Assembly: GCA_964016885.1 (NCBI GenBank)
Contig: OZ024750.1
Location: 14,880,001 to 14,944,000, forward strand
DNA from: Eledone cirrhosa
Taxonomy: Eukaryota
DNA length: 64,000 nt
Direction of reading: 5' to 3'
Part shown: positions 7,147 to 61,175 of the stretch, one piece after another
How positions within the stretch are numbered: the first letter of the stretch is position 1
How the letters are laid out: the number at the start of each line of letters is the position of its first letter
The notes under the pieces: model-generated
What the model was told of the DNA's origin: nothing
The model's input: the letters and a program-made list of their open reading frames with translations, nothing else
The model's database searches: none
Made by a program: the position numbers and the translations under genes

Positions 7147-7303
7147 TAGTTCTACTGTACGTATTTCGAAGATATCAGTGTGGTTGCACAATATATATAT
7201 ATGTATATATATATGTATGTAAAAGGTAAACAGAAATAACAACACAATCGGTACAGTAGATGGAAGGGATATATTAGGTTAACGCTTGATATAGCAGGAA
7301 GAG

Positions 7304-7343
7304 GGTCTTAACGTTTCGGACGCTAGTCCTTCATCAGAAAGGT
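7304..7343 (-). ncRNA. Minimal hammerhead-like motif in a PLE-like terminal fragment
   Basis: Minus strand ccttt-CTGATGA-A-GGAC-tagc-GTCC-GAAA-CGTTA-aga; stem III is reduced to a short palindrome and stem I is weak. Confidence 0.55.
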
Positions 7344-7534
7344 AACACACGAGTTGATATATATAAAAAGAAACAGTAGAAAGCAAACAGATTTTTTCAG
7401 TAGAAAATGCTGAAGAGATTTTTTTTTAGTGAAATTTCATAAAATTAATGTTTTGAAATTTCACTAAAAAATCTCTTCAACATTTTCTACTGAAAAATCT
7501 TTTTCCTTTCTACTATTTAATTTTCTTCTTTCAC

Positions 7535-7755: not shown

Positions 7756-7996
7756 TTTTTCAGTTGACAGTACTGGGGTAGTTTTTCTGGAGAAAAAACT
7801 TGATTATGAGAAACTACGTACTTATAATCTTCTGGCATTTGCTGAAAATTTGGGCAGCAGAAGACAAGAAACCTCTGTGGAGGTGGAAATTCAAGTAACT
7901 GATATAAATGATAATGGTCCTGTTTTCAAACAGATACCCTACTCAACAGATGTAACTGAGAAGACAATGATACTGCGACCAGCGATAAATGTCTTT
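7756..7996 (+). CDS. Cadherin exon 6 (FSVDSTG...KLDYEK...TDINDNGPVF...INVF)
   Basis: ttgtag/gtaagt; phase 2 in matches exon 5. Confidence 0.95.
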
Positions 7997-16649: not shown

Positions 16650-16665
16650 GTAAGTATAATAATAT

Positions 16666-17164
16666 AATTGTTTCTACTTTTGGCACAAGGCCAGCAATTA
16701 TCCCAGTACATTACTGGTACTTTATTTTATCGACCCCCGTAAGGATGAAAGGCAAAGTTAACCTCGGTGGGATTTGAACTCAGAATGGCAAGGGCCGTAA
16801 CTCTATGCATCAAAGCATGGTGTCCGACCGATACTGCCAATCCATCACCATTAATAATAATTGTTTCTACTTTAGGCACAAGGCCAGCAATTACCCAGTG
16901 CATTACTGGTACTTTATTTTATCGACCCCCGTAAGGATGAAAGGCAAAGTTAACCTCGGTGGGATTTGAACTCAGAATGGCAAGGGCCGTAACTCTATGC
17001 ATCAAAGCATGGTGTCCGACCGATACTGCCAATCCATCACCATTAATAATAATTGTTTCTACTTTAGGCACAAGGCCAGCAATTACCCAGTGCATTACTG
17101 GTACTTTATTTTATCGACCCCGTAAAGATGAAAGGCAAAGTTAACCTCGGCGGGTTTTGAACTC
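16666..17164 (-). mobile_element. Tandem trimer of SINE family A
   Basis: Three head-to-tail units of about 190 bp; the first two share a private deletion in the head and the third is cut at the B box. Confidence 0.88.
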
Positions 17165-17166
17165 AT

Positions 17167-17303
17167 TGGATTGACAGTATCGGTAGAGGGTCGGACACCA
17201 TGCTTTGACGCGTAGAGTTACGGCCCTTGCAATTCTGAGTTCAAATCCCGCGGAGGTTAACTTTACCTTTCATCCTTACGGGGTCGATAAAATAAAGTAC
17301 CAG
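17167..17303 (+). mobile_element. SINE family A, inverted copy abutting the trimer
   Basis: Head and core on the + strand, tail absent. Confidence 0.85.
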
Positions 17304-17797
17304 TACCTGTTTGGGGGAAAGGAATCGGAAATAGCTTATATACATGAGGAAGATAAATATAGGATCTTCGTGATATCATCAGTCGTCACATAGAACTTCA
17401 TCGGAAAGTGAAATTAAAGGGTTTTTAAACTTTTCTAGAGTGCATGACTACTTTTAGGATTTGCTGCTTATCTGTAGTGAAATCTAGACATGTGGTTGCA
17501 GTTGGCTGCGATATGCGGCGATAAGCTATGGCCTGAAAGTTAAGAACAGTGCAGTTGATTATAGTAACAGCTGAAATAGCAAAGAAAATGACTTAGAGAT
17601 TGAAGATTTTCAATTATCGATCAAGCAGATGGTTTTCTTGAAGCAATAAAAACTCAATAATATGTAGTTAATATACTTTATAACTGAGAATTTTACCAGA
17701 CGAGTAGTAATGAAAAGCTGTTTCCAAAATACACAAATCACGCCCCTTCTTCCCGTCATTTTCTGTCTGTCCGCTTGTCTATCTTTCTTTCCCCTAT

Positions 17798-23665: not shown

Positions 23666-24097
23666 ATTGGTTTCTGATTTATGCACAAGTCCAGTGATTT
23701 TAGGAGAGGGGAAAATCGATTAAATCGAACCCAGTGCGTGACTAGTACTTTATTTATCGACCCCGTAAGGATGAAAGGCAAAGCTAACCTTGGCGGGTTT
23801 TGAAATAATTGTTTCTACTTTTGGTACAAGGCCAGCAATTATCCCAGTGTATTACTGGTACTTTATTTTATCGACCCCGTAAGGACGAAAGGCAAAGTTA
23901 AACTCTTTGAAGGGCGGTGGTTTGGCAGTATCGGTAGAGCGTCAGACACCATGCTTTGCAGCATAGAGTTATGTCCCTTTGTGTTCCGAGTTAAAATCTG
24001 CCGAGGTTAACTTTGCCTTTCATCCTTACAGGGTCGATAAAATAAAGTACCAGTGATGTACTGGGGTAATCGCTGGCCTTGTGCCAAAAGTAGAAAC
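23666..24097. mobile_element. Cluster of three SINE family A pieces (two -, one +)
   Basis: Cores near 23740-23800 (-), 23850-23900 (-) and 24000-24055 (+). Confidence 0.8.
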
Positions 24098-25388: not shown

Positions 25389-25549
25389 CACACAAATATA
25401 TATATGAACTAACTCTCTAACTATATATATATATATATATGGGGTTTTTATTTATTTATTTTAATTTATTTTTTTATTTATTTTATTTATTTATTCTTTT
25501 ATCTATTTATTTATTCATTTATTTATTTATTTACTTATTTATTTATTTC

Positions 25550-25846
25550 AAAAAAGCACTCTGGCTAATTGACCACTCCCCAAAGAAAAAACGGCCTGTG
25601 CCATGAAGTGGTCCTGTGTATCTGAATACCACCCCCCTTCCACCACCCCTCCCTTACCACTACCTAAATGTATAAATACCAGAACTTAATATGACACCCA
25701 GCTTCCTGAAGATTTCATCTGAATGAAACAGTACTAGTCCTGTAGAAGCTCCTTCTATAAAATAAAAAAAAAAATAAAAAATTTACTCTGCCATGTATTG
25801 AGTACCTTACTTACTGTGGTTATCCCCGACTCAACCCGGGACCTAC

Positions 25847-25848
<2 letters not shown>
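25550..25848 (+). mobile_element. PLE-like terminal repeat (family P1): TATA-like box, hammerhead, 100-nt tail, then (TA)n
   Basis: TATAAATA at about 25671; the tail GTATTGAGTACCTTACTTACTGTGGTT...TCAACCCGG is shared with 44221-44300 (-) and 44546-44628 (+). Confidence 0.65.
25700..25750 (+). ncRNA. Type I hammerhead ribozyme motif, sense to the cadherin pre-mRNA
   Basis: AGCTTC-CTGAAGA-TTTCATCTGAAT-GAAA-CAG-tactagtc-CTG-TA-GAAGCT: 6-bp stem I, 4-bp stem III, GUA triplet. Confidence 0.75.
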
Positions 25849-25897
<49 letters not shown>

Positions 25898-32580: not shown

Positions 32581-33164
32581 GAATTTGTCCCTGAAGCTGC
32601 TAATTAGTCTGTTGTCATACCGAAAGCAGACAGAAGTACGATATTCTATTGTGTAATTGTAAGGTGACGCAGTATATGTCTTCATCTGGTTCTAATTTGT
32701 CCATTATTCAAATGGATGCTAGTTTATACCTCAGCAATTCTTGCAGCATAAAATATTTTTTTGAAATTATTTTAATTGATTTTCTTACGAGTGAGTTTAG
32801 TTTTTCTACATGATATCTCGTAATGGTAAGAATTTTGCCAAACTGGAACTGTTGCTATTGTTGTTACTACTGAAAAATTACTATTTGTAGCATACAAAAA
32901 TCTACAGACTATTTATTTATACAGCTTTTATTTTGTCGTCTGCAGCAATGTACTACAATTTCTAAAGTTGTCTAATCTAACAGAAAAGAAGAAAATATTG
33001 GTATCTCAAATGTTTTGTAACCTATATTTGTACCAATGCTGGTAGCAAAAACCAAAAGAAAATAAACGCATGGAAAGAGTAGAAAAAAATTGAAAAAAAA
33101 CAAACAAACAAAAAAAACATTAAAAGAAATAGCTGGCACATTACTCTAGTATAGAGGTTGTATT

Positions 33165-33527
33165 AATAATGGCTTCTACTTTTGGCACAAGGCCAGCAAT
33201 TACCCAGTACATTACTGGTACTTTATTTTATCGACCCCGTAAGGATGAAAGGCAAAGTTAACTTCGGCGGGATTTGAACTCAGAATGTAAAGGGCCATAA
33301 CTCTATGCTGCAAAGCATGGTGTCTGACACTCTACCGATACTGCCAATCCAGGTTGTATTAATAATGGTTTCTACTTTTGGCACAAGGCCAGCAATTACC
33401 CAATGCATTACTGGAACTTTATTTTATCGACCTCGTAAGGATGAAAGGCAAAGTTAACCTCGGCGAGATTTGAACTCAGAATGGCAAGGGCCGTAACTCT
33501 ATACGTCAAAGCATGGTGTCCGACCCT
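33165..33527 (-). mobile_element. Tandem dimer of SINE family A
   Basis: Two units, each preceded by AGGTTGTATTAATAAT. Confidence 0.85.
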
Positions 33528-35466: not shown

Positions 35467-35515
35467 GGTAAACAGAAATAACAACCCAATCGGTACAGTA
35501 TATGGAAGGTATATA

Positions 35516-35595
35516 TTAGGTTGTAACATAAATTCCTGTTGTTGTTATAATTTATTTGTTTTCACAAATCGGCGGGAATGTATGTTACAACCTAA
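35516..35595. mobile_element. 80-bp mariner-type MITE
   Basis: TIR TTAGGTTGTAACATA(A/C)ATTCC(T/C)G with TA on both sides. Confidence 0.65.
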
Positions 35596-35599
35596 TATA

Positions 35600-35665
<66 letters not shown>

Positions 35666-37610: not shown

Positions 37611-37798
37611 GGTGGATTGGCAGAATCAGTAGAGGGTAGGACACCATGCTTTGCAGCATAGAATTACGCCCCTTTACGGTCTGAGTTCAAATCCCGCCAA
37701 GGTTAACTTTGCCTTTCATCCTTACGGAGTCGATAAAATAAAGTACCAGTAATGTACTGGGATAATTGCTGGCCTTGTGACAAAAGTAGAAAGAATTA
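37611..37798 (+). mobile_element. SINE family A (tail type 1)
   Basis: Head, core and tail. Confidence 0.85.
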
Positions 37799-43715: not shown

Positions 43716-43879
43716 GTGAAGTTATTCTTATAAAAAAACTTGACTATGAAAATAAGAACAATTCAAACCCATTGAAGTTTGATATAATGGCTATTGCTGA
43801 CCCTCAACGTAATGCAACAGCAGGGGTGGAGATTACTATAAAAGACATTAACGACAACGTACCCGTGTTCCAACAAGAT
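43716..43879 (+). CDS. Cadherin exon 15 (EVILIKKLDYEN...KDINDNVPVFQQD)
   Basis: ttgtag/gttagt; LDYE and DINDNxP motifs. Confidence 0.95.
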
Positions 43880-44095: not shown

Positions 44096-44220
44096 CAAGA
44101 CATGATCACCTGACCTGACATTGCCCACAACAGGACAACCCGCCTAACCCATGCCAGCGTGGAAGAATGGATGTAAAACGGTAATGATGATGATGATGAT
44201 ATATATATATATATATATAT

Positions 44221-44405
44221 AAGTTTATCCCGGGTTCAATCAGGGTTAACCACAGTAAGGTACTCAATACAAAGCAGAGTATAAATATTTAATTTCGAAA
44301 AGCTTCTACAGGACTAGAACTGTTTCATTCGTGAGAAATCATCAGGGCTTCCTGATAATTTCTCACGAATGAAACAGTTCTAGTCCTGTAGAAGCTTTTC
44401 TAAAT

Positions 44406-44450
<45 letters not shown>

Positions 44451-44627
44451 GAGATTCTACAGGACTAGAACTGTTTCATTCATTAGAAATCATCAGGAAT
44501 CTGATGATTTCTAATGAATGAAACAGTTCTAGTCCTGTAGAATCTCTTCTATATTAAAACTGTTATACTCTGCTATGTATTGAGTACCTTACTTACTGTG
44601 GTTACCTCCGATTCAACCCGGAATAAC

Positions 44628-44628
<1 letters not shown>
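44221..44628. mobile_element. Two fold-back PLE-like (family P1) units in (TA)n carrying four hammerhead cores
   Basis: Palindromes 44284-44412 and 44445-44553; each arm reads CTGATRA-TTTC..GAAT-GAAA-CAG..CTG-TA. Confidence 0.75.
44452..44502 (-). ncRNA. Type I hammerhead ribozyme motif (intact copy)
   Basis: Minus strand GATTC-CTGATGA-TTTCTAATGAAT-GAAA-CAG-ttctagtc-CTG-TA-GAATC; stem I covaries with the 25700 copy. Confidence 0.75.
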
Positions 44629-44672
<44 letters not shown>

Positions 44673-50499: not shown

Positions 50500-51630
<1,131 letters not shown>

Positions 51631-59800: not shown

Positions 59801-59872
59801 GATGTGTTGGTGTAAATGGTAGCACAGTGGTCTGGATAACCAAAGATGTGGGTTCGACTCCCATGTACGTCA
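59801..59872 (+). tRNA. tRNA-like cloverleaf (apparent anticodon GGA, Gln-like D arm); probably a pseudogene or SINE head
   Basis: 72 nt; acceptor GATGTGT/GTACGTC, D stem GTGT/GCAC, anticodon stem TGGT/ACCA with loop CTGGATA, T arm GTGGG-TTCGACT-CCCAT; T5 run about 10 nt downstream. Confidence 0.5.
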
Positions 59873-60770: not shown

Positions 60771-60778
<8 letters not shown>

Positions 60779-61175
60779 TAAACGGAATAGAAAATGCTGA
60801 CAAATTGTTCACAGTTGAAAAATGGTTTAATTAGGAATAAAAGAATATTAGTGATTGTATGGGTTAGTATTCAGTTGTGGTTTTAAGTTTTTAAGTTTTT
60901 ACCGGTTGCGCATTTCTAAATGCTTTTCAAAAATAATTTTGAGATAGAGCGTCCGTGCTCCGTGCTGTTTGCTCTGATCAGAGCAAACAGCACGGACACT
61001 CTCAAAATTATTTTTGAAAAGCATTTAGAAATGCGCAACCGGTAAAAACTTAAAAACTTAAAACCACAACTGAATACTAACCCATACAATCACTAATACT
61101 CTTTTATTCCTAATTAAACCATTTTTCAACTGTGAACAATTTGTCAGCATTTTCTATTCCGTTTACCAATATATA
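60771..61175. mobile_element. About 400-bp near-perfect palindrome (fold-back PLE-like terminus) with a minimal hammerhead-like motif in each arm
   Basis: Centre GCTCTGA|TCAGAGC at 60977/60978; arm motif TTGAAAA-GCATTT-ag-AAATGC-GCAA-CCGG-TA at 61014-61044; bounded by TA repeats. Confidence 0.75.

Follow-up and report, generated by a model that had tools for sequence, protein, structure and literature searches.

Organization of the fold-back locus

The window, by which we mean the whole 64-kb stretch of DNA analysed here, presumably of animal origin, is AT-rich and full of microsatellites, and its plus strand carries cadherin-like exons, with a Pfam Cadherin match at 7769-7987 only (one of the seven pieces scanned). 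The locus under study likely lies in the intron next after the exon that heads Table 1. A 42-letter hammerhead pattern has five matches in the window, at 25706 (+), 44345 (-), 44352 (+, with one mismatch), 44496 (-) and 44501 (+); this pattern was built from the same copies, and the lack of any match in 100 shuffles therefore shows repetition, not function. At the locus the matches sit in two units of inverted arms, 44280-44346/44351-44417 in unit 1 (67 nt, 96% identity) and 44443-44496/44501-44554 in unit 2 (54 nt, 100% identity), each with a spacer of 4 nt. Pattern matches and inverted arms thus agree with the earlier note, which had described four hammerhead cores in two head-to-head fold-backs, and with its further observation of a full tail on the minus strand in unit 1 and on the plus strand in unit 2, each accompanied by a short inverted copy, since the long-arm tails run to 44221 (-) and 44628 (+), respectively.

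Table 1. Positions of the fold-back units, the sister copy and a cadherin-like exon in the window.
Feature	Position	Strand	Basis
Cadherin-like exon (…DINDNVPVF…), then GT	43778..43879	+	translation
(TA)11 of the target microsatellite, left flank	44199..44220	.	sequence
Unit 1 long arm: core from C3 (44345), AT-rich linker, 3' tail ending at 44221; without 5' arm of stem I	44221..44346	-	
Unit 1 long arm, predicted cleavage	after 44307	-	
Unit 1 short arm: complete stem I, core 44352 with G8A, end in AT-rich linker with (TA)n microhomology	44346..44412	+	
(TA)19 separating units 1 and 2	44409..44446	.	
Unit 2 short arm: core 44496, stem I GATTC/GAATC, GUA site after 44458; end at TATAT common with (TA)n	44443..44502	-	
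Unit 2 long arm: core from C3 (44501), linker, tail to 44628; without 5' arm of stem I	44501..44628	+	
(TA)21, right flank	44629..44670	.	
Sister copy, not inverted, between (TA)9 and (TA)22: about 260 nt of upstream sequence, hammerhead, linker, tail	25440..25847	+	
Sister copy, complete hammerhead: core 25706, stem I GCTTC/GAAGC	25700-25750	+	
Putative TATA box TATAAATA and initiator-like CCAGCTT; candidate transcription start A25700 (first stem I base)	25671..25704	+	

The short and long arms differ at 2 of 61 positions in unit 1 and at none of 54 in unit 2. Over 49 positions, arms of the same unit differ at 0-1 and arms of different units at 4-5, which indicates two events from two templates, and unit 1 is probably the older. 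In both units the 4-nt spacer corresponds to the 5' strand of stem I in the short arm, not in the long arm, and the short arm ends in the linker at 4-5 nt of TA microhomology.

Several other repeats were noted in the window. Another hammerhead, of classical minimal type and unrelated to those above, lies on the minus strand at 7222-7345 (core 7337) and has a bulged base after A9, a G10.1-C11.1 pair and a palindromic ACGT; this copy begins some 20 nt past a short TA run and its tail, which ends at a TA repeat, has a homolog with 95% identity at 35467-35522. There, at 35467-35600, the tail of the 7337 family forms a head-to-head pair with a minus-strand long arm, a 58-nt spacer and no hammerhead core, and its 20-nt short arm ends at an ATATAT microhomology with (TA)n, a pattern as in the short arms of units 1 and 2. 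A near-perfect palindrome of 395 bp (60775-61169, 94%, centre TGATCA, with a 7-nt duplication in one arm) directly follows (TA)n and possibly represents another Penelope-like family; an older palindrome of 160 bp (7365-7524, 78%) adjoins the 5' side of the minimal hammerhead copy and has a short motif in common with the palindrome at 60775. At 50862-51176, arms of 98 nt with 93% identity are inverted around a long (TA)n, with their ends toward the repeat, and an abundant SINE-like repeat occurs in tandem and inverted clusters (16660-17305, 23730-24097, 33155-33524 and 37620-37790).

Hammerhead motifs and their predicted activity

The type I core (C3 U4 G5 A6 N7 G8 A9, G12 A13 A14 A15, U16 H17; nucleotide list as given in PMC3088659, papers being cited throughout by identifier) is found in three of the four locus cores and at 25706, while the core at 44352 reads CUGAUAA (G8A). 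Only one of the four, 44496 (-), is complete: both long arms begin at C3 or one base before it and keep 1 bp of stem I, so that stem I is present only in the two short arms, and three helices can be drawn for 44352 (+), 44496 (-) and 25706 (+) but for neither long arm. All five motifs have a 3-bp helix II over U10.1-U11.1, a 4-bp helix III, a CTAG-centred loop and a GUA site. Positions 10.1-11.1, usually a G-C pair, are thus U-U in five of five cores; such a U-U has been reported in natural hammerheads (PMC3088659) and in the weakly cleaving axolotl HHR_Amex2, with U-U at the base of helix II, of which 22% was cleaved in 1 h (PMC7229834).

Even for the isolated motif, the hammerhead fold accounts for no more than about 0.1% of the modelled ensemble (z-scores 0.37 to -0.87), and for 44496 (-) a penalty of 72 kcal/mol is predicted for folding inside its 54-bp fold-back. 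Rfam hammerhead models gave no match at the gathering score and none at E<=10 in the window; at the gathering score Rfam returned a tRNA alone, at 59801, and the miRNA matches were hairpin-driven and below cut-offs. The tRNA-like sequence occupies 59801-59872 (47 bits). The four locus cores are predicted to be inert passengers, not a working ribozyme cluster, and would form long double-stranded RNA in the host intron. The sister-copy hammerhead (25700-25750) is in sense orientation to the cadherin-like gene, is not part of any fold-back and lies 5.4 kcal/mol above the best fold in a 150-nt context; of all copies it alone could nick the host pre-mRNA.

The loop II variants that had been reported from the sequence (ATCT, TCAC and TAAT) were all recovered. 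Covariation in stem I stood only in part: the letters are right (GCTTC/GAAGC against GATTC/GAATC), but at the locus stem I exists in the short arms only, and the signal concerns one pair in three sequences and is by itself not significant, with 178 of 500 shuffles scoring as high.

The family in sequencing reads

Four of the 18 listed sequencing runs, X1, X4 and X16 from organism A and X5 from organism B, were aligned to the sister copy (25545-25849) at 80% likeness; the best share of 33 sampled words in any run was 0.52, and the small-share runs X6-X15 were left out. Matching records numbered 5045 in X1, 202 in X4, 3790 in X16 and 7301 in X5, and the hammerhead family is high-copy and present in two organisms. 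The upstream part of the sister copy is itself multi-copy where tested (25545 onward) in X1, X16 and X5, and longer copies therefore exist. Depth over the ribozyme exceeds that at 25677-25687, 20 nt upstream, by 52x in X1, 273x in X4, 80x in X16 and 8.7x in X5, figures in which summed contig depth is not equivalent to copy number and the shares of X16, a RAD-seq run, are biased. The increase is spread across 25699-25720, and 90 X16 molecules ending at 25703 were excluded because of a possible restriction site.

Among the 24 loose-end rows listed, out of 409, agreement among the loose ends was 0.43-0.51 before 25703/25711 against 0.51-0.79 at the linker; the poor agreement before 25703/25711 is as expected of mixed flanks. 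Behind 25839-25846 the loose ends consist of TA/CA repeats in four of four runs. The overwhelming majority of the family's copies begin at the hammerhead's 5' edge and stop at (TA)n or (CA)n-like runs, and subfamilies with a divergent upstream region could partly account for the upstream drop in depth.

Among 40 of the 73 variant rows, variation touches no core position (0 of 12), four paired ones (of 24) and six free ones (of 13) (free versus core, Fisher p=0.015 in these rows). The variants at paired positions comprise C25702A and G25748T, which belong to one stem I pair, C25705T, which keeps a wobble, and T25703G, which breaks its pair (19 reads, 3 starts); the linkage of the two compensating stem I letters is visible in unit 2 only. 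Because variation spares the catalytic core and hits both halves of one stem I pair, the suggestion in the earlier note that the structure is under selection in the source elements finds support in the rows covered.

Inversion joints

Strand switches account for 12 of the 15 joint rows; to these rows X1 contributes 3 contigs, X5 9 contigs, X16 48 reads and X4 nothing. Each of the 12 has an end within 25701-25721, and in 11 the opposite end falls at 25782-25808, just past the AT-rich linker; joint direction is inferred, and clipping of the alignments at N7, loop II and the linker blurs the ends by up to about 20 nt. The geometry of the family joints is non-overlapping in 11 of 12, and the symmetric junction of units 1 and 2 is absent from the joint rows in reads, where the nearest is 25711 to 25722. 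No joint falls at the cleavage site (25744|25745) in the 15 listed rows.

Mapped across copies in reads, the breakpoints of the 12 strand-switch rows cluster at 25701-25721. The proposal that inversions form preferentially at the ribozyme holds as a description and fails as a cause: whether inverted or not, copies nearly always start at the ribozyme's 5' edge, and inversions therefore cluster at the copy start, not at the cut site. Moreover, three other head-to-head pairs beside TA runs (60775-61169, 35467-35600 and 7365-7524) contain no full hammerhead by a relaxed descriptor, which also misses the motif at 7337, and inversion appears not to need the ribozyme.

Proposed origin of the fold-backs

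We consider it probable that at this locus the 3'-terminal 125-140 nt of a Penelope-like retroelement (PLE) inserted twice, in separate events, into (TA)n, with reverse transcription primed on both cut target strands. For PLEs, targeting of (TA)n, a tail on one side only and a 5'-truncated partner in inverted orientation have been described (PMC8557442), and dispersed and opposite-strand hammerheads have been ascribed to truncated PLEs (PMC4209133). At AT-rich DNA, the protein of an anole PLE cuts both strands of the target and extends them; it primes within the RNA without homology and uses uncleaved RNA as its dominant template (PMC11167929). Twin and dual priming have been described for L1, where non-overlapping joints are the classical form of twin priming (PMC2837659). 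The family likely belongs to the PLEs; no PLE reverse transcriptase/GIY-YIG frame was recognised by eye among the open reading frames of the window, and family-specific patterns had no match in metagenome and genome contigs.

One target strand would prime at the end of the RNA tail without homology, as published for the anole element, and the other inside the AU-rich linker through the 4-5 nt of TA microhomology, in a twin or dual priming reaction. The internally primed cDNA would reach the RNA 5' end and so retain the 5' arm of stem I; the assignment of the spacer to stem I of the short arm in two of two units fits such internal priming. The tail-primed cDNA might halt at the linker, giving the non-overlapping inversion that forms the majority of joints in reads, or continue to C3, giving an inverted duplication as in both units, and the two cDNA ends would then join through 1-3 nt of microhomology. 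The duplicated form of units 1 and 2 might come about by strand displacement or from a second RNA. The template is presumed to be uncleaved RNA, of which the ribozyme would mark the end, neither cutting it nor causing the inversion. Snap-back self-priming of a long first-strand cDNA, for which unit 2 offers a possible CAG/CTG mini-hairpin, was rejected, as it would put the spacer on the long arm, opposite to what is found in both units.

As to what sets the RNA 5' end, TATAAATA, which we take to be a TATA box by general promoter consensus rules, as we take CCAGCTT to be initiator-like, begins 29 nt upstream of A25700. The RNA 5' end could correspond to a transcription start at A25700 set by this element, a placement that we favour, tentatively and at somewhat below even chances. 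The match was found post hoc and has a chance of about 1.2% in a 5-position window, and against the start-site reading the TATA element in organism B reads CATAAATA, with C at 25671 in 99.8% of the depth. In Drosophila virilis, the internal promoter of Penelope is described as lacking a TATA box (PMC2377424). A more doubtful extension is that, with the RNA starting at the first stem I base, tail-internal priming would run off the capped end and yield a strong-stop-like cDNA of about 140 nt, which would integrate alone 50-80x more often than longer copies in organism A.

The sharp 5' boundary might alternatively be a splice acceptor, the CAG at 25699-25701 closing an intron so that most copies would derive from spliced RNA with a very short exon 1. 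The CAG lies exactly at the boundary, the loose-end consensuses of X4 and X5 both finish AGGC(C)T, and the D. virilis Penelope intron has a 3' end that coincides with helix I's 5' end (PMC4209133). However, a pyrimidine tract directly before the AG is absent, the loose ends agree poorly further upstream (0.43-0.50) and PLEs are known to retain introns (PMC8557442), which together render this account improbable. Similarly low is the probability that we assign to the family being a non-LTR retrozyme, with tandem repeats and a circular RNA, of which the present copies would be fragments. Its type I hammerhead, high copy number and lack of open reading frames would suit such an element, as would the U-U at the base of helix II of the axolotl retrozyme (PMC7229834) and the reported derivation of retrozymes from PLEs (10.64898/2026.07.22.740005); but head-to-tail repeats occur in none of three window insertions, none of the 15 joint rows leads from the tail to the ribozyme or upstream sequence on one strand, and the ends are fixed, not permuted.

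That the ribozyme itself makes the breakpoints, through self-cleavage or through stalling of the reverse transcriptase on its structure, is suggested by their position, as both local junctions and the 12 strand-switch rows are found no more than about 20 nt from the core on its 5' side. Were cleavage the cause, however, 5' ends should fall at 25745, and a structural stall should first occur at about 25750, and none of the 15 listed joints is there; ribozyme and tail have about equal depth (~1900 each in X16 raw reads), the other head-to-head pairs lack a full hammerhead by the relaxed descriptor, and insertion in vitro was unchanged by ribozyme mutants (PMC11167929), so that we regard this as very unlikely. 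Still less credible is a single DNA-level fold-back or MITE-like element of 408 bp, or a later homogenisation of its arms by hairpin-driven conversion. The whole stretch is indeed self-complementary (83% over 409 nt, -268.7 kcal/mol), and two insertions in one of the 51 TA tracts of the window are a coincidence that requires local targeting; yet the inner arms match within units and not across the centre, the centre consists of (TA)n alone, position 25700 has the same sequence in unpaired form, and the tail ends adjoin (TA)n as in the monomer. Library or assembly chimeras, which the identical arms of unit 2 and the share of only 0.52 of 33 sampled words in the best runs might bring to mind, are highly unlikely, given that the arms of unit 1 differ, that stem I letters only on the short arm and a tail only on the long arm cannot both result from a single snap-back, and that three runs, each of a separate study, contain strand-switch joints of the family.

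The locus is real and mostly explained, and it works like a truncated PLE end. By itself it is ordinary mobile-element debris in an intron, but the origin of the inverted ends of PLEs and the role of their hammerheads are stated open questions (PMC8557442, PMC11167929). A family that is both short and very abundant, whose 5' boundary is sharp and whose arm polarity is defined, makes the origin of PLE inversions countable in one assembly, and the stem I spacer serves as a sequence marker that tells which arm reached the RNA end. If true, the start-site and strong-stop reading would account for the great numbers of solo hammerheads that animal genomes contain, and priming on both target strands would be shown as the source of the inverted PLE ends, legible to the base throughout a whole family.

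Comparison with known systems

Searches on twin priming with Penelope brought up, by titles and abstract openings, no paper on PLE inversion, and those on octopus hammerhead ribozymes no such family among the matches listed, while Repbase/Dfam, supplements and subscription papers may contain it. Among the matches listed, none placed a transcription start at a PLE hammerhead. The word 'ribozyme' does not occur in an O. vulgaris repeat paper (PMC13282606), and the passages considered of PMC6431247 hold nothing specific either. A pattern scan with the short stem II gave 7 viral and 12 prokaryotic matches, none with the stem III or tail of the family. Two of the seven viral matches, the phage contigs L004 and L007 (2001-2026), are identical in sequence and show a U-U-based short helix II within what is by eye a full type I hammerhead, with a 6-bp stem I, a 7-bp stem III and GUA.

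With the endonuclease-bearing PLEs (Penelope/Poseidon, Neptune, Nematis and Hydra; PMC8557442, PMC2377424) the family has in common a hammerhead near the 3' end, the core lying 125-142 nt from it in three of three long copies. As in PLEs, an inverted 5'-truncated copy is joined head-to-head, in two of three window insertions and in 12 joint rows, and (TA)n flanks all three window insertions, with no readable target duplication (PMC8557442). Unlike in PLEs, the one-sided extension measures 64 and 74 nt, against a published tail of 30-40 nt (PMC8557442), and the insertion measures just 125-140 nt, its 5' boundary at stem I being sharp, with no linked open reading frame. The partial head-to-tail tandem (pseudo-LTR) is found in none of three window insertions, no full-length copies being seen, and the reads contain three re-entries from the tail to the tail start.

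The motif also resembles the hammerheads of PLE terminal repeats (PMC4209133) in being of type I with a short helix I and a palindromic loop III (CTAG), and in occurring as dispersed high-copy single motifs and opposite-strand pairs. The metazoan minimal hammerhead, as described in that paper, has a helix II of 7-8 bp in Schistosoma, G10.1-C11.1, one bulged base and little or no helix III (PMC4209133). With its 3-bp helix II over U-U the present motif departs from this minimal consensus, and its helix III of 4 bp with an 8-nt loop is nearer to fungal and protist PLE variants (PMC4209133); a hammerhead with a 4-bp helix III and a U-U-based helix II thus differs from the metazoan minimal type.

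Like non-LTR retrozymes (PMC7229834; 10.64898/2026.07.22.740005), the family is non-coding, carries a type I hammerhead and was likely moved by PLE proteins; retrozymes are head-to-tail repeats of 150-450 bp with a hammerhead in each, whereas the copies here are head-to-head with fixed ends, both in the window and in short records. As in twin or dual priming of L1 (PMC2837659), there is an inverted segment with target microhomology at the outer end and little at the inner junction. Unlike in L1, an AT-rich linker and (TA)n take the place of poly(A) and a T-tract, and, in contrast to L1 twin priming, both units are inverted duplications that reach almost the same 5' end.
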